NCBI GenBank assembly: GCA_037441775.1
Contig: JBBIRO010000011.1
Coordinates: forward strand, 1,708-65,707
Source of the DNA: Syntrophobacterales bacterium
GTDB lineage: Bacteria > Desulfobacterota > Syntrophia > Syntrophales > CAMTWB01
Length of the DNA: 64,000 nt
Reading direction: 5' to 3'
Below are positions 2-56,406 of this stretch, piece after piece. The notes beneath the pieces are model-generated. The model saw only the letters and a program-made list of their open reading frames with translations, searched no databases and was not told the DNA's origin. Position 1 is the first letter of the stretch. Every line of letters begins with the position of its first letter. The position numbers and the translations under genes were made by a program.

Positions 2-814
2 GCCATTGAGCCCAAGACGGCGGCTGACCAGGAGAAGCTGCATGTTGCCCTGCAGAAGCTAATGGAGGAGGACCCAACTGTCAAGTTAAGGTACGATGAT
101 GAAACCGCACAGACGGTAATCTCCGGGATGGGGGAACTGCATCTGGAGGTGCTTCTGGACCGCCTCGAACGGGAATTTAATGTTCATGTAAACGTGGGCC
201 GGCCCAGAGTTGTCTGCCGGGAGACTATCCAGCGAACCGCTGCAACCGAAGGCCTGTTTGAAAGGGAACTGGGAGATAAGAAACATTACGGACATGTTCT
301 ACTCATGTTGAAACCACGGCCGGTGGGTCTGGGGAATCAGATTAAATTTGAGCTGTCGGAAGAAGGGTTGCACCTGCCGCCTGAGTTTCACTCCGCGATT
401 GAATCGGGCATCAGCGAGTCCATGTACGCGGGCGTTCTCAGTGGCTACCCCGTGGTCGATGTGGAAGTAGTCATCACTGGCGGAACCTTCCGTGAGGGCG
501 AATCATCATTTTTAGGCTATAAGATGGCAGCCTCCATGGCCTTTAAAGAGGGGTGTCAGCAGGCGGAGCCGGTCATTTTAGAGCCGATCATGCTGGTTGA
601 TATCATTACTCCAAAGGAATTTATGGGCGAATTGATCGGGGATATTAACTCCCGCCGGGGTGAGATTCAGACGATTACCCCCAAGGGTGCGATAACCGAT
701 ATCAAGGCAAGAGTGCCCCTACGTTCCCTTTTCGGATACTCCACTGACCTGCGTTCCCTAACCCAGGGCCGGGCGGTGTTCACCATGCAGTTTTTGGCCT
801 ATGATAAGGCTTGA
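2..814 (+). CDS. Elongation factor G family GTPase, C-terminal domains (5-prime end lies outside the window)
   Basis: Frame is open from nt 2 (AIEPKTAADQEKLHVALQKLMEEDPT..., GELHLEV). The rest resembles EF-G domains III-V. The stop TGA at 812-814 lies inside a T-motif repeat. Confidence 0.85.
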   Translation, partial: AIEPKTAADQEKLHVALQKLMEEDPTVKLRYDDETAQTVISGMGELHLEVLLDRLEREFNVHVNVGRPRVVCRETIQRTAATEGLFERELGDKKHYGHVLLMLKPRPVGLGNQIKFELSEEGLHLPPEFHSAIESGISESMYAGVLSGYPVVDVEVVITGGTFREGESSFLGYKMAASMAFKEGCQQAEPVILEPIMLVDIITPKEFMGELIGDINSRRGEIQTITPKGAITDIKARVPLRSLFGYSTDLRSLTQGRAVFTMQFLAYDKA

Positions 815-832
815 CGACTTTGGCAAAAAGTC
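811..832. repeat. T-motif, L orientation, solo/degenerate (ttgacgactttggcaaaaagtc)
   Basis: Matches the family consensus TTGACGRCTTCGTAAAAAGTC. Contains the EF-G stop codon. Confidence 0.6.
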
Positions 833-883
833 ACCCGCTCCGGCGCCAAATTTCCGTTTTTTTGATTTTATAAAGGTTCATTG

Positions 884-3004
884 ATGAATGAATTGTCACC
901 AAACACCAAGCTTCAAACTACCAGGCCGCTTTTGGATAAGGACAAGCTGCTGAAGAGTATTTTCAAAATAAGCGCCTTTTTGACCGCCCCTTCCAATGTG
1001 GACGAAATTTTGGGAAAAATCCTCGACGAGGTGGTGGATACCATCGGTTTTCACCGCGGCATAATCCGCCTGTTTGACGATAACAGACAATATCTGGAGA
1101 CCAAGGTAGTTAAAAATTACGGTCAGGAAGAAGCGAAGCGGGCGTTTTCGGTTGCCCTCAATATGAACGAGCATGTTTGTATCGCCACCCGCGTAGCCAG
1201 AACAGGTATTCCGATCGCCGTCGAGGACGCCGCAACCGATCCACGGATTTCTGACTATGACCGCTATCTCACCAGCATATCGAATCAGGGTTCCTATTTC
1301 TGCTCGCCATTAAAGATTGAAAATGAAGTCATCGGCATAATCGCGGTATGGTGTCGGGAGGAAACCAGGTTTTATCCAGAGGAAATCAATCTTTTTCTGG
1401 CCTTTGCCAATCAGATCAGCATCATTATCCACAGCGCCAGGCTCTTTGAGAAAAATGCACAAAAGATCAGTCAATTAACCGCCTTGCAGGAAGCGGTAAC
1501 GACCATGAACCAGAGCTACAACCTGGATAATCACATCCACGATATCCTGGTAACATGGTCCAGGAGAATAGCGGGAGCGGAAAAAGCCCTTGTTTACTTC
1601 TGGGATATAGAAAATGACCGTTGCCTGATCAACGATGGCGAACGGGTAACGGTTGAAGATGGAGGGCCAGGTCAAGAGATTATCGGACGCAGCATAATAA
1701 AAAACGCGATTGAAACCGGTAAAATCGTAACCAGACAAGCGGCAGACAGAGATAAGCCGCCTCTTTATGATGGTTATGACTCTGAAATAGCGCTGCCGCT
1801 TTCAATCAGGGACAAGTTCAAAGGCGCCTTATATCTGGCCTCAAAGTCTGCCCGGTATTCGCAGGATTTGGTGAACATTATAGATATTCTGGTCAAGAAC
1901 GCGGCGATTTCCTATGATAATGCCATTATGCATTCGCTAATTTCTCTTGAGGCCAAAAATCTCAAAAGCGAAGTTGAAAAACTCAAGCAGCGGGAGGATA
2001 TTCTGCTGGGATTTCATAATATTATCGGTAAATCAAAAAAAATCACCGATATCTTTTACTTGATCCAGGAGGTGGCGGACCACAACACCAATATCCTGAT
2101 CCAGGGAGAGAGCGGCACAGGCAAGGAACTCATCGCCCGGGCTATCCATCGACAAAGCATCCGCGCCGCCAAACCTTTTATCTCCCTAAATTGCGCGGCC
2201 ATTCCGGGGACGCTCCTGGAGAGCGAATTATTTGGTTATGAAGCGGGCGCCTTCACCGATGCCAAAAAAAGGAAACTGGGCATTATTGATTCGGCCAACG
2301 GCGGCACCCTGCTTTTAGACGAGATTGCCGATATGAGTATCCACATCCAGGCTAAATTTCTGCGGGTCTTAGAAGAAGGCTCTCTCAGGCGCCTGGGGGG
2401 GACGGAAAATATTCCCATTGATGTCCGGTTCATTTTTTCCACCAACAAGGACCTCAGCAAAATGGTACAGGAGGGAACATTTCGGGATGACCTCTTCTAC
2501 CGGATCAGCGTCCTTCCCATAACCATTCCTCCGCTTCGAGAGAGACCTGAGGATGTTGCGCTTTTGGCCAATCATTACCTGGAAGAATTCAACCAGAAAT
2601 TCAAGAAACGGGTCAAGGGCTTCAGCTATGACGCGGAGTACGTGCTTAGGAATCACCCCTGGCCCGGTAATGTGCGGGAGTTGAGAAATGTCATTGAGCG
2701 AGTGATGATCCTGCAGCCCGCCGATTCGATTATTACCCTGGACAATCTGCCGACAGAGGTGAAATCTGCCAAAGCAGTCGGGCCGATCAACCTGACCATG
2801 AACAATGTGAATTTCCTGCTGCCTGCAGAAAAAATGAATTTCACCCGACTGACTGAAAATATTATTCATGAAATCAAGGATAAAATGATTAGACAAGCCC
2901 TGGAAACCAGCCGCGGCAACAAGACCAAGGCCGCCAAACTGCTGGGAATTTCCCGTTACAAGCTCATCAGGGAACAGAAAAAGACGTTGGCGGGAAGTAA
3001 TTAG
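884..3004 (+). CDS. Sigma-54-dependent transcriptional activator with N-terminal GAF-type sensor region
   Basis: AAA+ sigma-54 interaction core (GESGTGKELIARAIH, GAFTDA) and C-terminal Fis-type HTH (KAAKLLGISRYKL). No receiver domain. ATG at 884 follows an in-frame TTG at 881. Confidence 0.9.
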   Translation: MNELSPNTKLQTTRPLLDKDKLLKSIFKISAFLTAPSNVDEILGKILDEVVDTIGFHRGIIRLFDDNRQYLETKVVKNYGQEEAKRAFSVALNMNEHVCIATRVARTGIPIAVEDAATDPRISDYDRYLTSISNQGSYFCSPLKIENEVIGIIAVWCREETRFYPEEINLFLAFANQISIIIHSARLFEKNAQKISQLTALQEAVTTMNQSYNLDNHIHDILVTWSRRIAGAEKALVYFWDIENDRCLINDGERVTVEDGGPGQEIIGRSIIKNAIETGKIVTRQAADRDKPPLYDGYDSEIALPLSIRDKFKGALYLASKSARYSQDLVNIIDILVKNAAISYDNAIMHSLISLEAKNLKSEVEKLKQREDILLGFHNIIGKSKKITDIFYLIQEVADHNTNILIQGESGTGKELIARAIHRQSIRAAKPFISLNCAAIPGTLLESELFGYEAGAFTDAKKRKLGIIDSANGGTLLLDEIADMSIHIQAKFLRVLEEGSLRRLGGTENIPIDVRFIFSTNKDLSKMVQEGTFRDDLFYRISVLPITIPPLRERPEDVALLANHYLEEFNQKFKKRVKGFSYDAEYVLRNHPWPGNVRELRNVIERVMILQPADSIITLDNLPTEVKSAKAVGPINLTMNNVNFLLPAEKMNFTRLTENIIHEIKDKMIRQALETSRGNKTKAAKLLGISRYKLIREQKKTLAGSN

Positions 3005-3022
3005 CAGGCAAAAGAAATTGGT

Positions 3023-7797: not shown

Positions 7798-8700
7798 TCA
7801 GACCTTCTGTGCGGTCGCCTTCCCTAAAAGACCAGTGGGTTTGAAAATAAGGATCAGTACCAGAAAGACAAAGGCAAACACATCTTCATAGTCGCTCGAT
7901 ATGTAGCCAGTGGCAAAGCTCTCGGTCCAACCCAGAACCAGCCCGCCCAGGACCGCCCCGGGGATGCTTCCTATCCCGCCTAAGACGGCGGCGGTAAACG
8001 CCTTGATCCCGGCAATGAAACCGATATAGAAGTTGATCCGGCCGACATGAGAAGCAACCAGCACTCCGCCCACCGCGGCTAGGGCGGAGCCGAGAATGAA
8101 GGTGTTGGAGATTACCCTGTTGACGTTAACCCCCAAAAGCATCGCCATACTGCGATCCTGAGCCGTGGCGCGCATGGCCTTGCCCATCATTGTGAACTTG
8201 ATGAACAGGGTCAGACAGACCATGACGACAGCGGTGATAGCGATAATCGCCAGGTCGGTTGATCCAATAATATGCTGATATTTCTCTGGTAATTCAAATT
8301 CCGGGATCAAACTGGGGAAGGGCAGAAAATCCGATGTCTGGGCAAGGAGAACATAGTTCTGCAGAAATATCGACATACCGATGGCGCTGATCAAAGGTGA
8401 CAGGCGCGGCGCCTGCCTCAATGGCTTGTAGGCTATTTTTTCGACGGTGAAGGCGTAGGCGGCAGCGTACATCATGGCCAAAACCGTCGAAAGGATCAGT
8501 AACGACACCCCTTCCATTCCGTACCAGGATAGGACACCGGAGACGATAAGCGCCGTGAAGGCGCCGATCATGTAGATCTCGCCGTGGGCAAAGTTTATCA
8601 GCTGGATAATGCCGTACACCATTGTATAGCCCAGTGCAATCAAGGCGTAAATGCTACCGCGGGTCAGGCCGCTGAAAAACAGTTCGAGAAAATATTCCAT
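7798..8700 (-). CDS. livH: Branched-chain amino acid ABC transporter permease (LivH type)
   Basis: N-terminus MEYFLELFFSGLTRGSIYALIALGYTMVYG is typical of LivH. Confidence 0.9.
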   Translation of the reverse strand: MEYFLELFFSGLTRGSIYALIALGYTMVYGIIQLINFAHGEIYMIGAFTALIVSGVLSWYGMEGVSLLILSTVLAMMYAAAYAFTVEKIAYKPLRQAPRLSPLISAIGMSIFLQNYVLLAQTSDFLPFPSLIPEFELPEKYQHIIGSTDLAIIAITAVVMVCLTLFIKFTMMGKAMRATAQDRSMAMLLGVNVNRVISNTFILGSALAAVGGVLVASHVGRINFYIGFIAGIKAFTAAVLGGIGSIPGAVLGGLVLGWTESFATGYISSDYEDVFAFVFLVLILIFKPTGLLGKATAQKV

Positions 8701-8816
8701 GGTTTAGGGATTATATTCTTTCTGCCTTAAGATATTGGACACAGTTCAAGAATTCTTAAAAAAATTTCCGAGAAGGCGTAAAGAAAACCTTCCCGGAAAT
8801 AGTGGCGCCGTTAAAA

Positions 8817-9941
8817 CTATTTGAGCTCCGTAAAGACGCCCTTCTTCACCTGATACACCGAGAAGCCGACGCCGATGGCATCACCCTTCTTGTCGAACTT
8901 GACCTTGCCCAGCGGGGTGTCAACTTCCTGGCCGCGAAGGACCGCTTCCACTTTGGCCGCTTCCGTGCTGCCAGCCTTCTGGATGGCGTTTAAGAGAGCC
9001 TGCGTGGCGGCCACCGCGTTGAGGAAAAAGGCGCCGGGATCAGCTCCGTAAGCTTTCTTATGGGCGTCATTGAAGGCCACGGCGAGGGGATTTTTCGAAA
9101 CATCACGGGGGCCCGTGGCATATACGCCTTCGGCGCTCTTGCCGGCGACCTTGATGAAGGTGTCATCCTTAACTCCATCGGCGGAGATGAAATTGGTTTT
9201 CATCTTCTTTTTTCTCATAAGCATCACGATGGAAGAGGCTTCCGGGTGATAGCCGCCATAAATCACCGTATCCGCCTTGGCCTGCCTGATCTTCTGGACA
9301 ATCGCCGAGTAATCCACCGCCCCGGGGGTGATGCCTTCGAAGAGAACGATTTCGGCGGTTTTCGCTTCCTCGACGAACTTCTTGGCAAACTCTGCATACC
9401 CCTTGCCGTAGTCACCCTTGTCATGAACAATGGCTATCTTCTTGGCTTTCAATTTGTTGAGGGTAAAATGCACTCCCAACTTGGCCTGATCGTCATCGGC
9501 GGCGATGGTGCGGTAGAAATTGGGAAAGTCGCCCGACTGGGTCAGGGCGGGATTAGTAGCGGAAGGAGAGATGGCGATCACCTTGGCGTCCTTGTAAATC
9601 CCCAGCGCAGCCCTGGTTGCGCCGCTGCAGACATGCCCTACCACCACATGAACACCTTTGGACACGAGCTTCGTCGCCGTATTGGTGGCCAGTTCCGGTT
9701 TGCAGACGTCATCTTCAACCAGAAGCTCCACCTGACGGCCCAGGACACCGCCTTTGGCGTTGATCTCCTTGACTACCAGTTCCGCCGCCTTGATGGACGG
9801 AATACCGTAGGAGGCAAGGTCACCGGAATGAGGCCCCGCAACGCCGAGCTTGATTGTCTCCTGGGCTAAAGCCATACCGGTAAACAAAAATAAAGAAATG
9901 ACCAATGTGGAGATAACGTTCCCGAACAACTTCTTCTTCAT
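8817..9941 (-). CDS. Branched-chain amino acid ABC transporter substrate-binding protein (LivJ/K type)
   Basis: Signal peptide followed by a type-I periplasmic binding fold (IKLGVAGPHSGDLASYG). First gene of the liv-type operon. Confidence 0.85.
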   Translation of the reverse strand: MKKKLFGNVISTLVISLFLFTGMALAQETIKLGVAGPHSGDLASYGIPSIKAAELVVKEINAKGGVLGRQVELLVEDDVCKPELATNTATKLVSKGVHVVVGHVCSGATRAALGIYKDAKVIAISPSATNPALTQSGDFPNFYRTIAADDDQAKLGVHFTLNKLKAKKIAIVHDKGDYGKGYAEFAKKFVEEAKTAEIVLFEGITPGAVDYSAIVQKIRQAKADTVIYGGYHPEASSIVMLMRKKKMKTNFISADGVKDDTFIKVAGKSAEGVYATGPRDVSKNPLAVAFNDAHKKAYGADPGAFFLNAVAATQALLNAIQKAGSTEAAKVEAVLRGQEVDTPLGKVKFDKKGDAIGVGFSVYQVKKGVFTELK

Positions 9942-10605: not shown

Positions 10606-12111
10606 TTATTTCCCGGCTTTCGCCAGGGGGCTCAAGGCCTCCCGGTCGCCGCCGCTCATGCCGGCGATATACTTTACCAGCTTCTTGCGGGACTCTATGT
10701 CGTACTGGGTCGTAATCGCAATCTGCTCCATGATCGGCGAGCCGCCGCCATGATAATTGCCCACGTTCGCGATACCTCCCGATGCCGAGCAGAGCCCGTC
10801 GCCCAGAAATCTCCAGAACTGGGCCTGATCTTCCGCGGACATGTTGGGATTACGCCTGGTGTACTTCAGGAGCAACTCTCCCGTCTCGGGATTCATAAAA
10901 TCTTTCTCGTGGGGGAAGGTCGCCGTAACGCCGCCGGAGATGTCGCATAGAATCTCCGCCTCACGAAAGACCGCTTCGCCCGACAGGCAACGTCCGACAT
11001 TGCAGTAGATGGAATGCGGAATGTATGAACCCGGACCATAGGGCACAAAACCGAATCCGGGAACAAAAACTTCTGGTTTGCCCAGGTCGGAGGCCGTATA
11101 GCCTGCGGCGTAACCGAGTTCGATGGTCATGATGAGCTCGGCCAGCTTCTCCCTGACATGGGATTCCTTATGGATATTATTCACTTCCGCGGCAAGTGCC
11201 GCTGCGCCAAGGATGATGTCTCCTATGGCGGGCTTGCAGCCAGAATAAGAATGGCGGTGGAATAGGGCAAAAAGCAAGGCGCAGGCGCCGCCGTGTTGAT
11301 GCTCACCGGCCAAAAAAACCCGCTCCCAAGGAATGAAACAGTCCTCGAAGATCATGTAGGAATCTGTCGCGCCGGGCTGGAAGCCACGTTTGTAATGCTC
11401 GCGGGGACGGAGGTTATGGATGGTTACCACTTGCTTCAGGCCGTCCCAGTCGCCCGGAATGGCAAAGGCAACCGCATAATCTTTATCCTGGGAACGCAGC
11501 GCCCGGGTGGGAACCACCAGTACCTCGTCGGCCACGGAGGCCTCTGAAATGTGCACCTTGCAGCCCTCGACGACGATACCGTCCTTCAGACGCTCCTTGA
11601 TCCGTACATAGGCGCTGGGGTCGGGCTGGTCAGCAGGGCGAAGCATACGATCTCCCTTCGTGTCCGTCTGCGCGCAGCAGCCGATGAGGTCTTCCGTCTG
11701 GAAGCGGATGAGCCACTTCTTGAAGTTCTCATGGTACTGGGTAGCGCCATTGTTAAGCTTGTCCGCCTCGTAGGATACATTGTAAATGGCGTTTGTCCCG
11801 TCAATCCCCATGCAGCGCTGGATGCAGCCGCCGACCTTCTGGCAGAGCATGCGGGTCATGTCCTGTTTCCGGTGAAGGTCTTCCTTATTCTGGTGAATGT
11901 GATTAAACCGATTGATGCGCTCCCCCGTTAGATGAGAAATTGCCGTGCACAGATCCTGGTTTTCCGGCTTGGCCGCTTCGTCGTACGTTGTGCCGATGGT
12001 ATTGATACAATCCATCTGCAACTCGTCCGTCCGGTCAATCAACTGACCGTTAAAAAAAATGTTACGCTTCATTGTTGATAATCCCTTGATATAATCCTGT
12101 TTTGTTCTCAT
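10606..12111 (-). CDS. 4-hydroxybutyryl-CoA dehydratase/vinylacetyl-CoA isomerase family protein (AbfD-like)
   Basis: Collinear similarity to AbfD as I recall it: INRFNHIHQNKEDLHRKQDMTRML, CIQRCMGID (Cys cluster ligands), HRHSYSGCK, GAAALAA. Confidence 0.8.
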   Translation of the reverse strand: MRTKQDYIKGLSTMKRNIFFNGQLIDRTDELQMDCINTIGTTYDEAAKPENQDLCTAISHLTGERINRFNHIHQNKEDLHRKQDMTRMLCQKVGGCIQRCMGIDGTNAIYNVSYEADKLNNGATQYHENFKKWLIRFQTEDLIGCCAQTDTKGDRMLRPADQPDPSAYVRIKERLKDGIVVEGCKVHISEASVADEVLVVPTRALRSQDKDYAVAFAIPGDWDGLKQVVTIHNLRPREHYKRGFQPGATDSYMIFEDCFIPWERVFLAGEHQHGGACALLFALFHRHSYSGCKPAIGDIILGAAALAAEVNNIHKESHVREKLAELIMTIELGYAAGYTASDLGKPEVFVPGFGFVPYGPGSYIPHSIYCNVGRCLSGEAVFREAEILCDISGGVTATFPHEKDFMNPETGELLLKYTRRNPNMSAEDQAQFWRFLGDGLCSASGGIANVGNYHGGGSPIMEQIAITTQYDIESRKKLVKYIAGMSGGDREALSPLAKAGK

Positions 12112-12275
12112 TTGCCTTTTCCTTTCTGTTCGTGTACCGATGAGGACGCCGTAGGTTACGATGGGAACGCTTTTAACTTATTAACTTACTTCTTGACAGT
12201 GCCGGCAATGGAGCCTATTGAGGCGCCATGCCGCAAGGATTACGCTTAGCCGCAGCAGATGTCGTCATATAATGA

Positions 12276-12350
12276 CGATTTTTTACCACGCCGTCAAGCA
12301 TTGCGAATTCGTAAAAAGTCCGCACTCCCCTCACTTTTCTTTTCCCCCTT
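12276..12350. repeat. R/L T-motif junction plus CGCACTCC...TTTTCTT module
   Basis: cgattttttaccacgccgtcaa (R), then ttgcgaattcgtaaaaagtc (L), then cgcactcccctcacttttcttttccc. The same junction architecture occurs at 44607-44660. Confidence 0.6.
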
Positions 12351-12357
12351 TTCTCTT

Positions 12358-13998
12358 CTATTTGGTCATCTGTAACCGCTGCTCCTCCCGGGGAACAAAC
12401 CACTTGATGAAGTTGTGCCCAATTCCGATCGGCGCCGGCTCTATGCCCTGAAAACGACCGTGAATAATCGGCAGGGCGTCGGGAACATACAAAAATGTAT
12501 ATGGCTGGTCTTCGGCGATAATCTCCTGTATCCGGTGATAGGCCCGGCGGCGTTTCTCCAAATCGAAAGTGCCGCGTCCCTTTTCCAAAAGATCGTCGAG
12601 TTCTTCGTTTTTGTAGGAAATAAAGTTCAACTCCCGGGCGCCGACCTTGCTGGAATGCCAGACATCGTACATGTCCGGATCCATTGGAATCGTCCATCCC
12701 AAAATGGTTGCGTCGAAACGCCGCTTGTTGATGAATTCGTTTACGAAGGCCGCCCACTCGATTACCCTTATTTTCACTGTAATGCCTATCTCGGCCAGTC
12801 GCCGCTGAATGATCTCGGCGGTCTTGGCCCGTACTTCATTTCCCTGGTTGGTGATTATCTCGAAACTGAAGGGTTTGCCGTCCTTATCCAGAATGCCGTC
12901 ATTGTTGCTGTCGCGCCAGCCGGCCTCGGCCAAAAGCGCCTTCGCCTTCTTGGGATCATAGGGATACTTACGGACATTTTCATTGTGAGCCCAGCTGCCG
13001 GGCTTCAGAGGACCAGTGGCCTCCCGGCCCAGGCCGAGCAGCACGCCGTTGATAATCTCATTTTTGTCGATGGCGTGCGAAATCCCCTGGCGCACCCTCT
13101 TGTCCGCAAACAACGGATTTTTGAGGTTATACCCCAGGTAGGTATAGGAGAACGAAAGGTAACGAAACTTGTTGTATTTTTGTTTGAAGGCGCCGGTTTC
13201 CGTCTGTCTCGTGTATTGCAGAGGGGTAAGGCCCATCCGATCGATGTTGTTTGCCCGCAACTCCAGGAACATGGTGGCCATATCGGGAATGATCCGCATG
13301 ATATAGCCGTCGATATAGGGTCGGCCTTCGAAATATTCAGGGTTAGATATCAAAACTATTTTCTGCCCCGTAACCCACTCCTTGAACATGTAGGGACCGG
13401 TGCCGACAGGGTGCCGGGAAAGCGGGCTTTTTGTAATGTCTTTTCCGGAAAGCAGGTGACGCGGCAGGATGCTGCTGCCCCAACTGGCCAACGCCGGGGC
13501 GAAAGGTTTATTGTAAGTCACCCGAAAGGTGTGGGAATCCAAGACCTCCGCCTTTTTCACCTTCTGGAAATCTCCGGCGTAGGCGGTCGGGGTATTTGGA
13601 TCGATTGTCACCCGGTAGGTATATAGGACGTCTTCGGCGGTAAATGGTTGTCCATCGTGCCACTTGACCCCCTTGCGCAGGGAAAATGTGATAACCAGCC
13701 CATCAGGCGATATCTCCCATGATTCGGCCAGGTCGCCGACTATTTTTATATCCTTGTCGTACTTCACCAGGCCGTTATAGACCAGCGCAGCGATGCCGTG
13801 CGAGGTGCTGTCGGAGGCCAAAAGCGGGATCAGACTGCTGGCATCACCGATGGAGCCCTCCACGATGATATCGCCGTAGGCGGGCGTTGCCGGCCTCTTT
13901 TTATCGGCATAGGCCGCGGCGCCACCAGCAACTAAAATGAAAAAAGTCATCAAAACAAATATGAACGTCCTTTTCATGCAGTGACTTTTCATTTGCAC
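12358..13998 (-). CDS. ABC transporter substrate-binding protein, family 5 (peptide/nickel type), orphan
   Basis: Signal peptide plus an OppA/DppA-like fold (LVKYDKDIKIVGDLAESWEISPDG). No adjacent permease or ATPase genes. Confidence 0.85.
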   Translation of the reverse strand: MQMKSHCMKRTFIFVLMTFFILVAGGAAAYADKKRPATPAYGDIIVEGSIGDASSLIPLLASDSTSHGIAALVYNGLVKYDKDIKIVGDLAESWEISPDGLVITFSLRKGVKWHDGQPFTAEDVLYTYRVTIDPNTPTAYAGDFQKVKKAEVLDSHTFRVTYNKPFAPALASWGSSILPRHLLSGKDITKSPLSRHPVGTGPYMFKEWVTGQKIVLISNPEYFEGRPYIDGYIMRIIPDMATMFLELRANNIDRMGLTPLQYTRQTETGAFKQKYNKFRYLSFSYTYLGYNLKNPLFADKRVRQGISHAIDKNEIINGVLLGLGREATGPLKPGSWAHNENVRKYPYDPKKAKALLAEAGWRDSNNDGILDKDGKPFSFEIITNQGNEVRAKTAEIIQRRLAEIGITVKIRVIEWAAFVNEFINKRRFDATILGWTIPMDPDMYDVWHSSKVGARELNFISYKNEELDDLLEKGRGTFDLEKRRRAYHRIQEIIAEDQPYTFLYVPDALPIIHGRFQGIEPAPIGIGHNFIKWFVPREEQRLQMTK

Positions 13999-14194
13999 CC
14001 CATCCCTTTCTGATAAACCTAGCCCTCGAGATTGTTTTTTATAATCTATCCCAGTAACAGCAATTTTGCAAAGAGATTGCGCTAAAAATCTACCTGGTAT
14101 AGATGTAAGGTGGAAAATGCAGGTTTTTTGTTTCCATCGGACATATTACCGCTTACGACATAACAACTCGCCGATTCATAATGCCCTTAAATAA

Positions 14195-40713: not shown

Positions 40714-40728
40714 TGCCCTGTCGTCTGC

Positions 40729-41595: not shown

Positions 41596-41617
41596 ACCCT
41601 CCCCTTCTTTATGCCTC

Positions 41618-42568: not shown

Positions 42569-42602
42569 TTCCCTTCCTCCCTGGTATTAATAAGCTGCTT
42601 CG

Positions 42603-43479: not shown

Positions 43480-44496
43480 CTAAACTGATAATCCGTCCGC
43501 ATCCCAACAAAAGCAAGAAACGGCATTCAAATCCAGACCATCGCTATGGCCTGCGGCCAGCAGGCGGTAGGCGGCGGCGGCAATCATCGCCGCGTTGTCA
43601 GTACAGAGAATCAGAGGGGGGATGAAAAGCCGATAACCGTTTTTGCGGGCTTCCTCAGCCATACGAAACCTTAGCCGGCTATTTGCCGCCACACCACCGC
43701 AGACAACAATATCCTTGAGGTCGATTAATTCAGCCGCCCTCAATGTTTTTGCCACCAGGACATCGACAATAGCTTCCTGATAGGAAGCGGCCAGATTCGC
43801 CAAGGAATCCGGATTATCTGGTACACCGTTTTTTTTCAGGTAATTGAGCAGCGCGGTTTTCAATCCGCTGAAGCTGAAATCACTCCCCTCCGGCAGGGGT
43901 CGCGGGAATGTCACGGCCGCGGGGTTTCCCTTTTGTGCCAGAGCGTCAATCACAATCCCACCGGGATAGCCGATGTTAAGAAGTTTCGCACCCTTATCAA
44001 AAGCCTCACCGGCGGCATCATCCCTGGTCTGGCCGATCAGCCTGATCTTCATCTTCTCATCAACCAGGCAAATGTTGGTGTGTCCGCCGGATACCACCAG
44101 GGCCAGGAACGGAAAAAGGGGCTGAATCTCGTCAAGAAAAATTGCCGCGATGTGGCCTTCAATATGATTCACCCCAACTAGCGGCTTTCCGATTGCGAAG
44201 GCCAGCGCCTTGGCAAATGACAGGCCGATCAGCAGGGAGCCTACCAGTCCCGGCCTGCTGGTTACCCCCACCGCGGCGATACTATCCAGCCCAACCCCCG
44301 CCTGATTGAGGGCTTCGGTTACCACCGGGATAATGGCGTCGAGATGCTTCCGGGACGCAAGTTCGGGAACTACTCCTCCATACGAGCAGTGGATGTCCGA
44401 TTGTGAATAGATAACATTGGAAAGGATGACGCGCCCGTCGCGGACCACCGCCGCCGCGGTTTCATCGCAAGAAGTTTCGATGCCCAGAATCAACAA
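43480..44496 (-). CDS. tsaD: tRNA N6-adenosine threonylcarbamoyltransferase
   Basis: ILGIETSCDETAAAV and VSGGHT motifs. TTG start. Confidence 0.95.
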   Translation of the reverse strand: MLILGIETSCDETAAAVVRDGRVILSNVIYSQSDIHCSYGGVVPELASRKHLDAIIPVVTEALNQAGVGLDSIAAVGVTSRPGLVGSLLIGLSFAKALAFAIGKPLVGVNHIEGHIAAIFLDEIQPLFPFLALVVSGGHTNICLVDEKMKIRLIGQTRDDAAGEAFDKGAKLLNIGYPGGIVIDALAQKGNPAAVTFPRPLPEGSDFSFSGLKTALLNYLKKNGVPDNPDSLANLAASYQEAIVDVLVAKTLRAAELIDLKDIVVCGGVAANSRLRFRMAEEARKNGYRLFIPPLILCTDNAAMIAAAAYRLLAAGHSDGLDLNAVSCFCWDADGLSV

Positions 44497-44497
44497 A

Positions 44498-44660
44498 ATG
44501 ACCTCATAAAAAGTCTTAAAAGCCTTGAATTTAGATTGGCTTCGTAAAAAGATCGAAAAACCTCACATTTTGTCATTCCCGCCTGCGCGCGAATAACGCC
44601 GTGGTTACTTTTTACGAAGGCGTCAACAAAAGCCGCACTCCTTTTTTCTTCCAAAAACGG
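44498..44660. repeat. Composite element F: two L termini, one R terminus and an abutting CGCACTCC module
   Basis: atgacctcataaaaagtc, attggcttcgtaaaaagatcg and actttttacgaaggcgtcaa, followed by caaaagccgcactccttttttcttcc. Confidence 0.75.
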
Positions 44661-44753: not shown

Positions 44754-46394
44754 ATGGAAATCAAAACTGACTTTCTGGTGTTGGGAAGCGGCATTGCCGG
44801 ACTTAGCTTTGCCATCAAGGCGTCGCAACTGGGAACTGTCGCGATAGTGACTAAGAAAGATGTTTCGGAATCAAACACCAATTACGCCCAAGGGGGAATT
44901 GCCGCCGTTTCGGATCCGCTGGATCGTTTCGAGTATCATATCAACGATACCATTGTTTGCGGCGCCGGGTTATCCAAGCCGGATGTGGTTAAGTTCGTAG
45001 TTGAGGAGGGACCGGAAAGGATCAGGGAACTCGTCGATTGGGGCGTAGAATTTTCTCGTTCCCAGGAACCATGTTCAGCCTACGATCTTGGGCAGGAGGG
45101 CGGCCACTCAATGCGCCGGGTGCTGCACGCCAAAGATCTTACCGGACGCGAAATTGAACGGGTTCTGAACGAAAAGGCATCAGGGATAGAAAATATCAAG
45201 ATTTATGAAAATTTCATCGCCGTTGACCTGATTATGCCTTCTTCACCGACCGGAAAACAGAAGAGGGCTGCCGATACCTGTCTGGGCGCCTATATCCTCG
45301 ACATCCAGGCTAACGAAGTCCATACATTCCTTGCCAATTACACGATCATTGCCACCGGCGGGGCCGGCAAGGTCTATCTCATTACCACTAATCCGGACAT
45401 CGCCACCGGCGACGGAATAGCCATGGCCTACCGCGCCGGCGCCAAAATAGCCAATATGGAATTCATTCAGTTTCACCCCACTTGCCTCTATCACCCGGAG
45501 GCCAAAGCCTTTCTGATCAGCGAAGCTCTACGCGGGGAAGGTGGAATTCTCAAGCTCAAAAACGGCAGCACCTTCATGGAAAAATATCATCCCCAGGGAT
45601 GTCTTGCCCCGAGGGATATAGTCGCCAAAGCAGTCGACACGGAGATAAAGAAATCCGGCGATGAATATATTCTGCTTGACATCAGTCATCGGGACCGGGA
45701 ATTCATCATCGACAGATTCCCCAATATTTATAAGCGCTGTCTGGATTTTGGCATTGATATCACGTGCGAACCTGTCCCGGTGGTTCCGGCGGCCCATTAC
45801 ATCTGCGGAGGCGTTCTCGTCGATGGCGTCGGAAAAACCAGCATTGACAGGCTCTACGCACTGGGTGAGGCGGCGTGCACCGGGCTTCACGGCGCCAACC
45901 GTCTGGCCAGTAACTCATTACTGGAGGCGCTGATCTTCGCGCATCGGTCTTTTGTAGAGATTAGCCATGATTTCGCTCCGCTGAATTTAAACACGCTCGC
46001 TGTAGAACCATGGTGCACTCTGGGGGTAGTCGAAAGTGACGAATTTATTCTTGTATCTCATAACTGGGATGAACTGAGACAGCTGATGTCGGACTACCTG
46101 GGCATCGTCCGTTCCAATCAGCGGCTGGAAATGGCCTTAAACAGGATAAGGCTGATCGGCAAGGAAGTGGAAGATTTTTACCGTAATTTTCATCTTAGTA
46201 AAGACATTATTGAACTTAGGAACATATCACTTGTGGCATTGCTGATCGTTCGCTCGGCCATGAGCCGCCAAGAAAGCCGGGGGCTTCATTACAACGTGGA
46301 TTTTCCGGCTTCTGATGACACCAACTTTTTAAAAGACACCGTCATCTCGAAATACGATGACTTCGTAAAAAGTCAAAAGCCCCCTCTCCCTTGA
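44754..46394 (+). CDS. nadB: L-aspartate oxidase, with the last ~12 codons encoded by a repeat element
   Basis: DFLVLGSGIAGLS FAD-binding motif and RVLHAKD..TG. The tail DDFVKSQKPPLP is translated T-motif plus hairpin module. Confidence 0.9.
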   Translation: MEIKTDFLVLGSGIAGLSFAIKASQLGTVAIVTKKDVSESNTNYAQGGIAAVSDPLDRFEYHINDTIVCGAGLSKPDVVKFVVEEGPERIRELVDWGVEFSRSQEPCSAYDLGQEGGHSMRRVLHAKDLTGREIERVLNEKASGIENIKIYENFIAVDLIMPSSPTGKQKRAADTCLGAYILDIQANEVHTFLANYTIIATGGAGKVYLITTNPDIATGDGIAMAYRAGAKIANMEFIQFHPTCLYHPEAKAFLISEALRGEGGILKLKNGSTFMEKYHPQGCLAPRDIVAKAVDTEIKKSGDEYILLDISHRDREFIIDRFPNIYKRCLDFGIDITCEPVPVVPAAHYICGGVLVDGVGKTSIDRLYALGEAACTGLHGANRLASNSLLEALIFAHRSFVEISHDFAPLNLNTLAVEPWCTLGVVESDEFILVSHNWDELRQLMSDYLGIVRSNQRLEMALNRIRLIGKEVEDFYRNFHLSKDIIELRNISLVALLIVRSAMSRQESRGLHYNVDFPASDDTNFLKDTVISKYDDFVKSQKPPLP

Positions 46395-46475
46395 CGGAAG
46401 ATGGTTGGGGTGTTGTGATAATGGCGCTTAATTCTAAATGCTTAGCTCCCCATCCCCTTTATCCCCTCCCGCGAG
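46356..46475. repeat. Element K: an L terminus plus the J/E-type core, with no clear R terminus
   Basis: gatgacttcgtaaaaagtc followed by a core with gtgataatgg...aatgcttagctccccatcccctttatcccctccc, homologous to 38524-38638. The first 39 nt are read as the NadB C-terminus. Confidence 0.7.
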
Positions 46476-46565
46476 ACGGCCAGGATGAAAACCACCAAAC
46501 TGGTCAAGTGCCACTAGACCAACCATTTTTTTGACGAATGCCTGGCTTCCCGGTATGGAGCGGCA

Positions 46566-50056: not shown

Positions 50057-51775
50057 ATGAAGAAGATTTTAGCTTTATTGTTGGGATTTATAATAATAAT
50101 TGGCTCATACGGAGTACTCAAGGCTCAGGATAAGAAAATTGTCGCCGTCATTCCCTTTACCGTCTATAGCGCCGAGAATATCGATTACATTCGCCAGGGC
50201 GTATCAGGAATACTTTCATCGCGACTGGCCGCATCCGACAAGATTGAGGTTACAAATCGCGAGGCAATAGCCGAGGCTCTAAAAGCTCTTGGCGTAAGAG
50301 AGCCTTCCGGCGCAGATGTCGAGTCTGTGGGAAAGGCGCTAAAAGTTCATTACGTTGTTTGGGGAAGCCTGACCAAAATCGGCAGCAGTGTCAGCATCGA
50401 TGCCAAGTTGTCCGAAATTACGACGGCCAAGCCTCCGGTAAACTTTTTTTCCCAAACGCAAAACCTAGACGAAATCATTCCTCGCACTAGCGAAGTCGCC
50501 GAACGGATTGCACGCCAGGTAACAGGAACGCAGCAATTGGCAGGCCAGCAGATTGAACCTCAGGCGCGCCCATCGGGGTCGGCGACATTACCCGTGCCTC
50601 CTCCCCCGGCCGGCAGTTCCCGGGAGGCGGAAATCATATCTTCGCTACGTGGCGGAGGCAAAAAGGCCACCTTTACCTCAATCATTAATCCTGACTTCAT
50701 CAACGTGCCTGGATCAACCGGTTTAGACCGGCGCGGCTTTTGGATGAGCAATGACTTCCCAAATGAATTCAAAGGAATGGACATCGGCGATGTCACCGGA
50801 GACGGCATGAATGATGTGGTAATGATAGATTCGACCAACATATTCATCTATCAGAAGAAAGGTCAGGAATTTAAACAGATCCACCATATTAGAGGTAAGT
50901 CTTACGACAATTATCTTTCCGTCGATGTGGCCGATATTAACAGAAACGGCATCAAAGAAATTATCGTCACCAATATCAACGAGACCCTTCTCAATTCCTT
51001 CGTCCTGGAATTCCGCGATGGGAAGTTCACGCAAATCGCATCGGACATAAGACTGTTTCTGAGAGTCATCAGCCCCGATGGCAAGGAACCAGTATTGCTC
51101 GGACAGAATTTCGGCAGCGACGCTATTTTCAATTCGCCGATACATGAAGTGGTCTGGCGTAACGGCCAGTACCAGCCAGGGAAAAGAATGAAGATACCCC
51201 AGGGGCTTCCCATTTACGGCCTCACGATCGACAGTCTCGCCGCCGGAGGGGAAAAGATAATAGTGCTCAATGATTTTGATAATATCACCCTTTACCATCC
51301 TACTGACAAGCCCCTGTCCCGTCTAGCCGTGTTTGGCGGCGCCAAAGAACTGATCTACCGTAGCGAAGAGCCTTTCGGCGGATCGAATAATTATCTGGCG
51401 CCAACCTCAAGTAGTAGAAATCCCGTCATCGATCAGGTCAATAACACATACCTTAACTTAAGAATATTGACCTACGATCTCGAGGGCAAGGGCAAAAGGG
51501 TAATCATAATCCCGAAAAACTCGTCCCCAATAGGCCGGGTCTTAAGCAATGTCAAACTGTTCACGAGCAGCGAATTATACTGCCTCTCCTGGGATGGGCT
51601 GGGTATGGCGGAAAACTGGCGGTCAAGAAAGATAAACGGCTACGTGGCCGACTACCAGATAAAGGACCTGAACAACGACGGCAAGGATGAAATAGTGATG
51701 ATTCTGGTTCGCGAACATGGAACCGGTAGAAAGGGGCATTCGGTGCTGGTTTCTTACGATCTTACCGTTAATTGA
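50057..51775 (+). CDS. Secreted FG-GAP/VCBS-repeat protein
   Basis: Signal peptide plus repeated D-x-N/D-x-D-G-x-x-E/D calcium-type motifs (DVTGDGMNDVVMID, DINRNGIKEIIVTN, DLNNDGKDEIVMIL). Its stop TGA lies inside a T motif. Confidence 0.7.
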   Translation: MKKILALLLGFIIIIGSYGVLKAQDKKIVAVIPFTVYSAENIDYIRQGVSGILSSRLAASDKIEVTNREAIAEALKALGVREPSGADVESVGKALKVHYVVWGSLTKIGSSVSIDAKLSEITTAKPPVNFFSQTQNLDEIIPRTSEVAERIARQVTGTQQLAGQQIEPQARPSGSATLPVPPPPAGSSREAEIISSLRGGGKKATFTSIINPDFINVPGSTGLDRRGFWMSNDFPNEFKGMDIGDVTGDGMNDVVMIDSTNIFIYQKKGQEFKQIHHIRGKSYDNYLSVDVADINRNGIKEIIVTNINETLLNSFVLEFRDGKFTQIASDIRLFLRVISPDGKEPVLLGQNFGSDAIFNSPIHEVVWRNGQYQPGKRMKIPQGLPIYGLTIDSLAAGGEKIIVLNDFDNITLYHPTDKPLSRLAVFGGAKELIYRSEEPFGGSNNYLAPTSSSRNPVIDQVNNTYLNLRILTYDLEGKGKRVIIIPKNSSPIGRVLSNVKLFTSSELYCLSWDGLGMAENWRSRKINGYVADYQIKDLNNDGKDEIVMILVREHGTGRKGHSVLVSYDLTVN

Positions 51776-51975
51776 CGACTTCGTAATAAGCACGGATGCA
51801 GCTTTGAGGCTAAATCCCTCGCCACTCAAGGCAATGCCCACCTTGTTGGCGCAAGCGCTCTTGACTATTGCCAAATCGCCGCGGGCACAAGGCCCGCGGC
51901 TACAGATAATTGGGCAATCCCGGCTCGTCCCGCCAGACAGCGGAAGTCAGAGCAGCGTACTTTTAGATTGACAAC
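51772..51975. repeat. Element L: an L terminus, module P and a degenerate R terminus
   Basis: ttgacgacttcgtaataagc, module P at 51867-51903 (9-bp stem gccgcgggc/gcccgcggc), and R-like gtacttttagattgacaac. Confidence 0.6.
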
Positions 51976-52011: not shown

Positions 52012-52083
52012 TTTGACGGCTTCGTAAAAAGTCAAAAGCCAGCTCTCCCATGAGGGGAGAGGGTTCTTGAATGTTGTGACGCG
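52012..52083. repeat. Element M (short): an L terminus, a hairpin and a degenerate R terminus, 14 nt upstream of a tRNA gene
   Basis: tttgacggcttcgtaaaaagtc, then ctctcccatgaggggagag, then cttgaatgttgtgacgcg. Confidence 0.65.
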
Positions 52084-52519: not shown

Positions 52520-52578
52520 TCTGAACGTTCACTGAAGCGGGTATTACCAATGTTGCCTATTTATGTCAAGAGCAAATA

Positions 52579-52597
52579 ACGCCTTTGTAAAAAGTCC
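52579..52597. repeat. T-motif, L orientation, solo (acgcctttgtaaaaagtcc)
   Basis: Lies 12 nt from the lon stop codon. Confidence 0.5.
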
Positions 52598-55032: not shown

Positions 55033-55054
55033 TTATTACCCCGGATATTCTGGC

Positions 55055-56317
55055 CTAAGCCGATTCAATTTTGTTTTCCAAGACCAGGATGGGCTTTTCA
55101 CCTCTGAGAACGGCCTCTTCATTAATTATGCATTCCCTTATGTCCCTGCGGGATGGAATCTCATACATTATCTCCAACATGATGTTTTCAAGAATAGACC
55201 GCAAACCTCTGGCCCCCGCTTTTCTGTCCATGGAGACTCTTGCAACTGAGCGTAAGGCGTCATCGGTAAATTTCAGCTTCACCTGGTTTAGCTCGAAAAG
55301 CTTCTTGTACTGTTTTATTATCGCATCCTTCGGTTCCTGCAGGATGCTCACCAATTCTTCCTCGGATAATTCATCAAGTGATGCAATGACTGGAATTCTG
55401 CCAATAAACTCAGGTATCAAACCAAATTTAAGCAGGTCTGATGGCTGAACCTCGGCCAGAAGTTCACCAATCTTGCGATCTTTTTTGCTTTTGATATCCG
55501 CGCCAAACCCGATCGAATTTGCGCCTAATCTCTTGGCGACAATATCCGGCAGGTCGTTGAACGCACCGCCACAGATAAATAAAATATTAGTCGTGTCCAC
55601 CGGTATGAATTCCTGCTGCGGATGCTTGCGGCCGCCTTTTGGTGGTATGTTGGCCACTGTGCCCTCGATAATTTTAAGGAGCGCCTGCTGAACACCCTCG
55701 CCGGAAACATCCCGCGTAATAGACGGATTGCCGGATTTTTTGGCAATCTTGTCAATCTCATCAATGTACACAATTCCGCGTGATGCCTTTTCCACGTCAT
55801 AGTCTGCGTTTTGTAACAGACTCAAAATTATGTTCTCCACGTCTTCGCCCACGTATCCGGCCTCTGTCAGGGTAGTGGCATCGGCAATGGCAAAAGGAAC
55901 ATTCAACATTTTGGCCAGAGTTTTAGCAAGAAGCGTTTTTCCAGAGCCAGTTGGGCCGATCATCAAGATATTGCTCTTCTGGATCTCAACCCCATCGCGC
56001 TCTGGCTGGCATTGAATGCGGCGATAGTGATTGTAAACCGCCACCGCCAGCATTTTCTTGGGCCTATTCTGTCCAATTACATACTGGTCTAAAAACTTCT
56101 TAATGTTCTTTGGCTCCGGAATTTTTTGCGATTGATCTTCAGATAAGTACACGGCTTGTTCTTCTTCGACAATACATCGGCATAACTCAATACATTCGTC
56201 ACAAATATAAGCAGTAGGGCCAGCCACCAATTTTCGGACTTCATGTTGTGTCTTGCCACAGAAAGAGCAAAACAGCATATTGCCCCTCCCCTGATTATAA
56301 CTTCCTTTTTTTGTCAT
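55055..56317 (-). CDS. clpX: ATP-dependent Clp protease ATP-binding subunit ClpX
   Basis: Zinc-ribbon CSFCGK...CDEC and [11 protein letters not shown]. Confidence 0.95.
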
Positions 56318-56386
56318 TCGAAATCCTCTTCTATCAGGCTATTGCCGCTTGTTTTTTTGCTGATTTTATATCTGGTAATCATCTGT

Positions 56387-56406
56387 GATGACTTCGTAAA
56401 AAAACC
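56387..56406. repeat. T-motif, L orientation, solo (gatgacttcgtaaaaaaacc) in the clpP-clpX spacer
   Basis: Near-identical to the terminus at 46356. Confidence 0.6.

Follow-up and report, generated by a model that had tools for sequence, protein, structure and literature searches.

[quoted passage not shown] The elements described here, found in a 64-kb stretch of DNA (the window) of a Syntrophales-like bacterium, resemble them in having the same terminal inverted repeats as a transposase-bearing element and a target duplication of fixed length, in measuring 50–300 nt without an ORF, and in being numerous between genes, with empty sites in related genomes and lineage-specific bursts. They differ in that the partner insertion sequence was found only in other metagenome contigs and not in the sampled MITE-rich genomes, that their termini scarcely vary among several orders (and, going by MAG labels, in more than one phylum), that the commonest member is asymmetric, and that varied hairpin cargos lie between the same ends.

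Three other families invite comparison. [quoted passage not shown] A deltaproteobacterial-type host, terminal repeats, stable folds and gene overlap of some copies are thus common to both; however, Chunjie has 9-bp direct repeats, is 178–235 bp long and A+T rich, whereas our elements duplicate 6 bp and are GC-rich inside, and it is on Chunjie's description that we set them apart. The Correia elements of Neisseria, to which a first-pass annotation had likened the window copies, are also dense intergenic MITEs of about 100–160 nt with long terminal inverted repeats able to pair in RNA, and they too lie beside gene ends and sometimes alter gene termini. The likeness holds for the architecture but not for the duplication, which is TA in Correia elements and 6 bp here. 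The two also differ greatly in host range, and the window lacks the Correia terminal repeat. ERIC sequences of Enterobacteriaceae and Vibrio are likewise imperfect palindromes of about 130–155 nt whose sequence is conserved in many species, with variants arising by internal insertions and a transcribed intergenic location. Unlike ERIC, to which they appear unrelated in sequence, the present elements extend beyond one family and have a 6-bp duplication and clear terminal repeats in common with an insertion sequence.

From their sequence, the motif copies in the window are very probably the ends of non-autonomous MITEs related to an insertion sequence of about 1.9 kb with a distantly IS1182-related DDE transposase. 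Gene-less MITEs with a transposase-carrying parent are a familiar kind of finding.

Termini and copies in the window

The first-pass annotation had counted roughly 30 or more copies of a motif by eye. With up to three mismatches, the 21-mer matched 10 times in 64 kb and never in 100 shuffles, and a position-weight matrix (PWM) built from 310 sites gave 26 matches at ≥8 bits and 21 at ≥12 bits, against about 1.2 and 0.35 in Markov-shuffled windows. The recurrence is well founded, with 25–26 copies in the window, and the count was therefore slightly high. The true terminus is 19 bp long (left type GACGGCTTCGTAAAAAGTC, right type GACTTTTTACGAGnnCATC) and bounds each element as terminal inverted repeats; the leading TT with which the motif had been drawn is target DNA, being part of a 6-bp target-site duplication outside the element. 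A characteristic left–right spacing was confirmed in 120 other loci, where distances from left start to right end peak at 128–131, 136–138 and 154–158 nt.

Nine of the eleven places reported to hold facing termini have a scorable terminus at both sides; in the other two (51772–51975 and 52012–52083) only the left end is good. Beyond the limits first drawn, two elements continue into a second, outer right repeat, which ends at 20263 in one and at 35066 in the other. Among the reported solo termini, those at about 12277/12300, 46354, 52576 and 56385 were recovered, while weak or incomplete matches lie at 811 (with a one-base insertion), 5011, 23304 and 49681. The copies are as follows, with the strand where one was assigned; in several, the right end or the duplication is not recognisable.

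12277–12320: abutting termini, right-type (12277–12295), 6-nt spacer AAGCAT and left-type (12302–12320); PWM 23.7 and 21.6 bits; element bodies not recognisable
19499–19660, minus strand: inverted canonical-type MITE copy of 162 nt; full-length nhmmer match to the canonical profile, E = 8e-26; perfect duplication AAGATT at 19493–19498 and 19661–19666; included in the canonical alignment (A1)
20080–20263, plus strand: decayed canonical-type MITE copy; nhmmer E = 1.5e-10; left terminus CGCGGCTTCACAAAAAGTC, inner right repeat 20208–20226, outer right repeat to 20263; flanks AATTTT/AATTCT (5/6 match)
25560–25761: MITE of 202 nt with two termini and several internal GC-rich hairpin modules; PWM 22.3 and 20.9 bits; RNA fold −81.6 kcal/mol, z = −5.8; duplication decayed (ATAGGT/ATTGTT)
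26625–26713: short MITE, 89 nt; PWM 11.7 and 28.1 bits; perfect 6-bp duplication AAAACT
33883–33973: decayed MITE of 91 nt, both termini weak; PWM 9.4 and 9.0 bits; flanks AAATAG/AAATAA (5/6 match)
34942–35066, plus strand: MITE of 125 nt with left terminus and GC-rich hairpin; PWM 22.5 and 19.0 bits; inner right repeat 35011–35029, outer right repeat to 35066; right part 97% identical to 20220–20251; no duplication recognisable in the flanks
36410–36530: MITE of 121 nt between convergent genes; PWM 28.7 and 32.0 bits, the best-preserved terminus pair of the window; fold z = −6.5 and −5.0; also detected as an inverted repeat
38506–38658: MITE of 153 nt, left terminus weak and right strong; PWM 12.4 and 35.4 bits
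44498–44624: MITE of 127 nt in the divergent tsaD/nadB gap; perfect duplication AACAAA at 44492–44497 and 44625–44630
46356–46374, plus strand: left-type terminus, followed by hairpin modules as far as about 46480; PWM 28.1 bits; right end not recognisable
51774–51792, plus strand: left-type terminus, body with hairpin modules to about 51975; PWM 20.1 bits; right end not recognisable
52015–52033, plus strand: perfect left terminus (exact match, PWM 37.4 bits) and one hairpin, 64 nt upstream of tRNA-Met; right terminus absent
52578–52596, plus strand: solo terminus between lon and tRNA-Val; PWM 23.8 bits
56387–56405, plus strand: solo terminus between clpX and clpP; PWM 22.2 bits

The right–6 nt–left arrangement at 12277–12320 recurs at another locus (L119), where it joins two full elements.

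Window matches are intergenic or sit at the ends of genes. On a crude gene map, about 11–12 of some 17–19 gaps longer than 150 bp carry one, against 13 of 17 estimated by eye. Several termini meet the ends of genes. The stop codon of the Maf gene (24848–25561) falls at the junction with the left terminus of the copy at 25560–25761, that of the DinB gene (36529–37836, minus strand) at the junction with the right terminus of the copy at 36410–36530, and that of the gene at 50057–51775 is formed at the junction with the terminus at 51774–51792; the terminus at 46356–46374 encodes the final NadB residues (DDFVKS...), with the stop inside the element. Divergent, tandem and convergent gaps hold 26, 61 and 15 copies, in proportion to their shares of summed intergenic length (25.6%, 56.7% and 17.7%), which favours neutral accumulation over a dedicated role in regulation.

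Target-site duplication and an empty site

The target-site duplication is 6 bp long and A/T-rich, approximately AANNTT. For 91 elements anchored on GAYG...CRTC, exact direct repeats in the flanks peak sharply at a length of 6 nt (31 elements), with 7 nt in a further 10 by chance extension; with permuted partners, about one element with such a repeat is expected. At one locus (L007) the flanking repeat is 12 nt instead of 6.

A look for presence/absence polymorphism had been suggested, and one window copy has an empty site in a related MAG. In two syntenic loci (L123 and L124, about 83% nucleotide identity), the site orthologous to the copy at 44498–44624 is empty and retains the target once. 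In the alignment, TCAACAAAA occurs twice in the filled site and once in the empty one, as in a clean insertion, and BLAST at the empty site gives a 9-nt overlap. The first of these loci does have the orthologue of the terminus at 46356–46374. Elsewhere, a diverged orthologous gap (L142) is without the element of 33883–33973, and a 3.1-kb gene of the same locus occupies the position of the copy at 36410–36530. The MITE-like reading of the first-pass annotation is thus supported by the inverted repeats, the 6-bp duplication, the number of small ORF-less copies, the empty site and full-length relatives.

Canonical member and RNA folding

The canonical member is 155 nt long, aligns over 37 copies and is asymmetric, with one left repeat and two tandem right repeats. 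In its long hairpin, 95.4% of cells pair and 12 of the 28 pairs have changed on both sides, compensatory covariation that none of 500 shuffles reached and that slid controls fell far below. The interior is nevertheless not a single structure; interchangeable GC-rich hairpin modules supply differing cargos between the same ends. Copy interiors have a median identity of 94% within a MAG and 67% between MAGs, whereas the termini are nearly invariant. Well over 70 MAGs, most of them Thermodesulfobacteriota, and some viral contigs have these termini. The family had been called apparently undescribed. Rfam holds no match, either at its gathering thresholds or among hits with E up to 1, and a limited literature search found no paper describing the family.

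The first-pass annotation had proposed each element as a candidate RNase III or structured-UTR substrate. It is unlikely that the elements are primarily structured RNAs (cis-regulatory hairpins, RNase III targets or bidirectional intrinsic terminators) under selection for their fold, with the inverted-repeat 'termini' forming a closing stem with an A-tract and a U-tract. The compensatory changes that preserve the canonical hairpin favour such a reading, as do the several window copies that fold at z between −4 and −6.5, and the A5–hairpin–T5 layout reads like a bidirectional terminator. However, a simple terminator scan showed no enrichment (21 found, 21.9 expected), and there is neither an Rfam match nor one common interior structure. 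Copies follow intergenic length without preference for 3' ends or 5' regions, and their orientation to genes varies. Their most conserved part is exactly what transposase-bearing elements have in common with them, and an RNA gene would have no reason to insert with 6-bp duplications.

Transposase-bearing relatives

The first-pass annotation had reported no intact transposase in the window and suggested a search for an autonomous element with the same termini. No transposase was found in the window by Pfam, precomputed Pfam on identical contigs or tblastn. Autonomous elements with these termini were found in other metagenomes, not in this genome. They are about 1.9 kb long, have the same inverted repeats, left/right asymmetry and 6-bp duplication length, and each encodes one distantly IS1182-like DDE transposase of 580–616 aa. 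One of them (L205) spans 1,948 nt between the termini GACGGCCTCGTAAAAAGTC and GACTTTTTACGAGTCCGTC, with a perfect AAAGTT duplication and a single 616-aa ORF matching the Pfam families DUF772, DDE_Tnp_1 and DDE_Tnp_1_6. Homologues of this transposase at 92%, 68%, 60–64%, 53% and 52% identity each lie between inverted repeats of this type, which are diverged in the 68% homologue (L209), and perfect 6-bp duplications flank three further insertions, those of the 92%, 53% and 52% homologues (ATGAGT, AATTTT and AAGATT). Only the termini are common to insertion sequences and MITEs; the subterminal sequence differs. The 120 copy-rich genome loci (0.77 Mb) contain no transposase of the L205 type, nor do the other fetched loci (1.49 Mb in all) except the transposase loci themselves, so insertion sequence and MITE were not seen together in one genome and the partner is known from other metagenome contigs.

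Spread of REP/BIME-like palindromic units by a host single-copy Y1 tyrosine transposase (RAYT, IS200-like) is improbable. The elements are indeed intergenic, palindromic and very abundant, and in a relative a 285-aa Y1_Tnp gene flanked by inverted repeats lies exactly at the element-bearing gap 38443–38974 of the window. Nevertheless, Y1 transposases insert without target duplication, whereas a fixed 6-bp duplication is found here; the inverted repeat around the Y1 gene (GGGGTCAGGTCTATAC) bears no relation to the motif, and a DDE transposase with matching termini exists. Least probable of all is a host-protein binding site or promoter element acting in regulation and not mobility (TTGACG as −35 box, the A-tract as UP element), for although TTGACG resembles a −35 hexamer and tRNA-Val has a good sigma-70-like promoter with one solo copy immediately upstream, the TT of TTGACG is target duplication, a −10 element at proper spacing is absent from the sequence, paired copies face inward, some copies separate convergent genes or reach into the ends of genes, and there is presence/absence polymorphism with duplication.

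As MITEs, the copies would depend on a transposase that binds the conserved inner part of the repeat (TCGTAAAAAGTC), cleaves at the GAY ends and cuts the target with a 6-bp stagger, thereby mobilising gene-less copies in trans. The interior would be dispensable cargo of GC-rich hairpin modules, the 155-nt version being the commonest; at the base of its palindrome, the left repeat is predicted to pair with the inner right repeat, and the outer right repeat, the functional one, comes after the palindrome. Copies probably amplify within a lineage and then decay, persisting only at tolerated sites (between genes or within their last codons), which would explain the solo and degenerate termini in the window. 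Co-transcribed copies would form long RNA hairpins, and any effect on mRNA would be a side effect.

The parent resembles the IS1182 family in its single long DDE transposase with DUF772, DDE_Tnp_1 and DDE_Tnp_1_6, its length and its terminal inverted repeats. IS1182 is also its best NCBIfam match, and distant homologues on plasmids carry the annotation IS1182 family. The placement is loose because the L205 ORF scores 137 bits against a cut-off of 270; identity to annotated IS1182 transposases is 26–28%, and public annotations call the protein hypothetical. The parent family may belong to an ISNCY subgroup listed in ISfinder, ISDol1 of Desulfococcus oleovorans, with 6–7-bp duplications and lengths of 1.6–1.9 kb.

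Termini, target duplication and empty site

[quoted passage not shown] Inverted termini, a 6-bp target duplication, small size without a transposase ORF, an empty site and an autonomous partner were all found, so that the likeness to MITEs raised in the first-pass annotation of this sequence is borne out. Enrichment of the motif is clear. The 21-mer first described, which starts with TTGACG, occurs 10 times in the window at up to three mismatches and is absent from 100 dinucleotide-preserving shuffles. A position-weight matrix (PWM) of the terminus was derived from 310 sites, taken from the window and from related loci. At ≥8 bits it matched 26 window sites, where a Markov-shuffled window gives about 1.2; at ≥12 bits the figures are 21 and about 0.35. 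These matches all lie between genes or within the last codons of genes, and nearly every position of the 19-bp termini is conserved in the matrix. Eleven places had been reported to hold a left and a right copy facing each other; nine of them have scorable termini on both sides, while 51772-51975 and 52012-52083 have a good left end alone. The nine bounded copies and the solo ends together make up about 2% of the bases of the window; they fill much of its intergenic DNA and occupy most of its large gaps.

Bounded copies in the window and their flanking hexamers
19499-19660, canonical-type copy, inverted, profile match; AAGATT / AAGATT, perfect
20080-20263, canonical-type copy, profile match; AATTTT / AATTCT, 5/6 match
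26625-26713, bounded copy; AAAACT / AAAACT, perfect
33883-33973, bounded copy; AAATAG / AAATAA, 5/6 match
44498-44624, bounded copy; AACAAA / AACAAA, perfect
Remaining bounded copies; flanks decayed

Target duplication was scored as exact direct repeats flanking 91 elements, anchored as GAYG...CRTC with the leading TT of the original motif left out. Six-nucleotide repeats flanked 31 of the 91 elements, compared with about one when partners were permuted. Repeats of 7 nt flanked 10 elements, the rate expected from chance extension, and repeats of 8 and 12 nt were found once each. The duplicated hexamers are A/T-rich, approximately AANNTT. Since the mode is 6 nt with TT outside the element, and the hexamers follow this pattern, the TT of TTGACG must be counted as target sequence, which leaves a terminus of 19 bp. 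An interpretation in which the element ended in TTGAC and the duplication measured 4-5 nt gave way to the 6-nt duplication with a GAC end. Insertion in the IS200/IS605 manner beside a TCAA target was abandoned, the target being genuinely duplicated.

The metagenome-assembled genome (MAG) GCA_947085375.1 is a relative syntenic with the window over 39-51.5 kb at about 83% nucleotide identity. For the copy at 44498-44624 it has a clean empty site (loci L123/L124) reading GCCCAGAATCAACAAAAGTAACG, where the window has TCAACAAAA on either side of the element. This is one clean case of presence/absence polymorphism; two further orthologous gaps are too diverged to be scored as filled or empty, and an apparent strain-level indel in another locus (L144) proved to be a run of N. 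Copy interiors have a median identity of 94% within a MAG versus 67% between MAGs, and the termini are almost invariant, the pattern expected of within-lineage bursts under constant end recognition.

At 12277-12320 of the window, a right terminus, exactly 6 nt and a left terminus follow one another, the element bodies being gone. The same arrangement joins two complete elements at another locus (L119, ~2280-2320), as in insertion beside an existing end; it also looks like the circle junction of abutted ends.

Canonical layout and interchangeable hairpins

Among 120 listed loci, elements range in size from 48 to 303 nt; measured from the left motif to the final right one, they peak at 128-131, 136-138 and 154-158 nt, so that left and right copies pair at characteristic distances. 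The commonest, canonical form is about 155 nt long, and its layout was read from an alignment of 37 copies (A1). It starts with the left repeat, followed by a long imperfect palindrome (CCAxxTCTGCGTTGCGCTGCATCCTTCGTCAyTGCGGCGTAC, a loop, GTACGCCTCATTCCTCAGGATTTGCGCGCCTTGxAxxTGGA). After the palindrome comes an inner right repeat, rCTTTTTACTTTGCCGTC, which pairs with the left repeat, then a spacer of 7-8 nt and the outer right repeat GACTTTTTACGAGnnCATC. The term 'modular' used in the first-pass annotation is apt: different hairpins occur between the same ends, for instance a pair of GTCATTCCGGCGAAGGCCGGAATCCAG-type palindromes, or hairpins of the GGGGAGAGGG type, and hairpin modules recur between elements within the window.

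Compensatory substitutions maintain the canonical hairpin. In A1, 95.4% of cells pair and 12 of the 28 pairs are changed on both sides, values reached by none of 500 column shuffles; in slid controls, with the 3' partner moved by 1-3 columns, 34-43% of cells pair. These changes are the best argument that the structure matters, be it in RNA, in single-stranded DNA while the element transposes, or by way of how such palindromes originate. The RNA strand that would be favoured differs by criterion. The reverse complement folds more stably (-59.6 versus -51.3 kcal/mol, in 32 of the 37 copies), whereas G-U pairs are commoner in the forward orientation, opposite to the folding-energy preference.

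Further repeats accompany the family. One subfamily, 190 nt long and bounded by the same ends, contains GGAG, ATG and a 21-codon ORF (MMSLALKIASCLRALAR...) at about 28 of the loci L147-L207 (e.g. L157 1080-1270; also L012 and L062). Its sequence is highly conserved across contigs, although the ORF may be due to chance, as the search pattern itself selected GGAG and ATG. Other hairpin repeats, of the CCCCCCTGCCCCCCTTTGGGAAAGGGGGG and GTCATTCCGGCGAAGGCCGGAATCCAG types, lie in the same gaps (L123 19567-19795; L142 16950-17250) and in many cargos. The GTCATTCCGGCGAAGGCCGGAATCCAG type resembles the RS3 repeats of Neisseria.

A probable transposase-bearing partner

That the window contains no intact transposase, as noted at first reading, is supported by Pfam searches of the ORFs of the first 25 kb, by precomputed Pfam annotation of identical contigs (for 26.7-47.8 kb and 58.6-64 kb) and by a tblastn query using the transposase described below. 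Left and right termini lying 0.5-5 kb apart in the window and the 120 listed loci all enclose ordinary genes, with no parent element among them. In those 120 loci the ORF families retrieved were housekeeping ones (ABC ATPases, sigma-54 regulators, HdrA), and no ORF was multicopy.

Autonomous elements with the same termini were found on other metagenome contigs, all with a DDE transposase. The first, L205, came from scanning metagenomes for a terminus followed after 25-55 nt by GGAG (a ribosome-binding site) and ATG; it lies on a groundwater contig and is an element of 1,948 nt with AAAGTT on each side, the termini GACGGCCTCGTAAAAAGTC (left) and GACTTTTTACGAGTCCGTC (right) and a single ORF of 616 aa. 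Its Pfam domains, DUF772, DDE_Tnp_1 and DDE_Tnp_1_6, are typical of the IS5/IS1182 group. This transposase has 4,637 homologues at E ≤ 1e-20; the majority measure 580-600 aa, come from contigs some 2 kb long and are named 'hypothetical protein'. No transposase of this type was detected in the 1.49 Mb of fetched DNA outside the transposase loci, the 120 listed loci included.

Fetched homologues and their identity to the L205 transposase
L208, 92%
L209, 68%
L210, 60-64%
L211-213, 53%
L214-219, 52%

All of these elements end in 19-bp inverted repeats of this type, those of L209 being diverged, and in each the stop codon of the transposase lies within the right repeat. Perfect 6-bp duplications surround four insertions: L205, L208, L211/213 and L214/216, the last three flanked by ATGAGT, AATTTT and AAGATT. 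L208 has a GACG-type end upstream of the transposase and a GATG-type end at its 3' side, mirroring the asymmetry between the left and the outer right terminus of the MITEs. In L214-L218 (204-3737), the full-length element sits between an ISAzo13-type transposase gene and a DDE_Tnp_1 fragment, and this nest of ISs recurs in several assemblies.

Considering these features, the DDE transposase would bind the inner conserved block TCGTAAAAAGTC of the termini and cleave at the GAY ends. It would then insert the element at A/T-rich hexamers through 6-bp staggered cuts, and the gene-less copies would be mobilised in trans. What is notable in this pairing is the near-invariance of the ends across several orders, the asymmetry of the canonical member and the interchangeable cargo. 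A transposase with well-conserved 19-bp ends also offers a compact, testable transposition system from anaerobes that are genetically hard to work with.

As to the affiliation of the parent, the best NCBIfam model for the L205 protein is NF033551 (IS1182 family), at 137 bits and thus below the curated cut-off of 270; NF033593 (ISNCY_1) gives a partial match of 62 bits. Distant homologues on plasmids (26-28% identity) carry the annotation IS1182 family transposase. The parent element would also fit the ISNCY subgroup ISDol1 of Desulfococcus oleovorans, for which ISfinder lists duplications of 6-7 bp and lengths of 1.6-1.9 kb.

Comparisons of the MITEs with described repeats point away from each of them. 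Chunjie MITEs have 9-bp direct repeats and measure 178-235 bp (PMC3184786), whereas the elements described here have a 6-bp duplication and main sizes of 128-158 nt. REP/BIME-RAYT systems insert without duplication and have short GTAG-type palindromes, in contrast to the fixed 6-bp duplication found here. The resemblance to Correia elements suggested at first reading does not extend to identity, as Correia elements duplicate TA instead of 6 bp and their 26-bp terminal repeat has no match in the window at up to three mismatches.

A link to Y1 transposases is very unlikely, as the Y1_Tnp gene of L142, a locus of the related MAG, has a different flanking repeat, unrelated to the motif. This gene (8081-9003, GCA_947085375.1) encodes an IS200/RAYT-like protein of 285 aa, has the inverted repeat GGGGTCAGGTCTATAC on either side and lies upstream of lexA-like and dinB genes. 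Its counterpart in the window is a gap of 532 nt (38443-38974) that holds a MITE.

Rfam retrieved five tRNAs alone from the window at gathering scores, and nothing convincing over the elements at E ≤ 1. Literature searches with the motif sequence as text gave nothing relevant, and those combining MITE or REP with these taxa gave no description of the family. The family can thus be called undescribed in the sense of having no Rfam match and no description in the literature searched, as a new member of a MITE/IS pairing that is known in kind.

Distribution and effects on genes

The NadB and DinB proteins of the window have their best named relatives in Smithellaceae, Syntrophus and Syntrophales MAGs, and contigs near-identical to the window are found in GCA_964457235.1 and two Logan assemblies. 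An exact scan for TTGACGNCYTCGTAAAAAGTC in one genome per species retrieved at least 120 loci, from about 75 MAGs among the matches listed. Nearly all of the listed matches belong to Desulfobacterales, Syntrophales, Syntrophobacterales, Desulfatiglandales or unclassified Thermodesulfobacteriota, and a few are labelled Nitrospirae, Acidobacteriota, Neomarinimicrobiota or Gammaproteobacteria. An exact 21-mer shared across orders implies that the motif is not a species-specific repeat. Complete MITE copies also occur on IMG/VR contigs classed as viral (L128, L129, L130/L141 and L137/L138), one contig of 44.9 kb providing two of these loci; such copies hint at how the family might pass from host to host. 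A blastn search of plasmids with a canonical copy gave no match.

The ends of the family recur in the genomes of many uncultured sulfate reducers and syntrophs. Recognition of the family would improve annotation, namely of spurious small ORFs, gene ends running into elements, breaks in MAG contigs and 'hypothetical' proteins of 580-616 aa that are transposases. For strain typing in these communities, the empty sites together with the constant 6-bp duplication are ready markers.

Copies are distributed among divergent (26), tandem (61) and convergent (15) gaps almost exactly in proportion to summed intergenic length (25.6%, 56.7% and 17.7%, respectively). A role as terminators was not supported, as a simple consensus terminator scan showed no enrichment and the copies showed no 3'-end bias. 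Proportionality to gap length and unenriched terminators argue for neutral accumulation wherever insertion is tolerated. We also considered a wider joint reading. The parents would be an IS family or deep subgroup unrecognised by annotation, and the MITEs a phylum-wide chassis with near-invariant 19-bp ends and interchangeable hairpins. Selection would act on the structure of the modules, in line with the compensatory changes. Phages would carry the elements between lineages, and in Thermodesulfobacteriota they would have been co-opted to mark mRNA ends, to terminate or process transcripts and to donate C-termini to genes. Taken as a whole, this combination seems to us rather improbable.

The elements do reshape genes, as the NadB tail and several stop codons derive from element junctions. 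NadB ends in ...YDDFVKSQKPPLP*, its DDFVKS being encoded by the terminus at 46356-46374 (window 46356-46394), and L123 has this terminus at the orthologous place. Three other genes stop in a TGA formed by the TT of the target and the GA of the terminus.

Genes ending at an element junction
24848-25561, stop codon 25559-25561
50057-51775, stop codon 51773-51775
36529-37836, stop codon 36529-36531

A near-consensus sigma-70-type promoter (TTGACA, 17 nt, TAATAC) for tRNA-Val and tRNA-Asp was observed at 52540-52596 on the minus strand. It lies directly downstream of a solo terminus, whose A/T tract falls at the UP-element position. Differences in gene content between the window and L123 also occur at MITE-bearing gaps. 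L123 carries a 4.9-kb block at 11645-16500 (a small ORF, a PfkB kinase, ThiC and a poly(A) polymerase) versus 171 nt at 46395-46565 of the window. Conversely, 1.9 kb of additional genes are found in the window at 40714-42629 versus L123 8010-8025.
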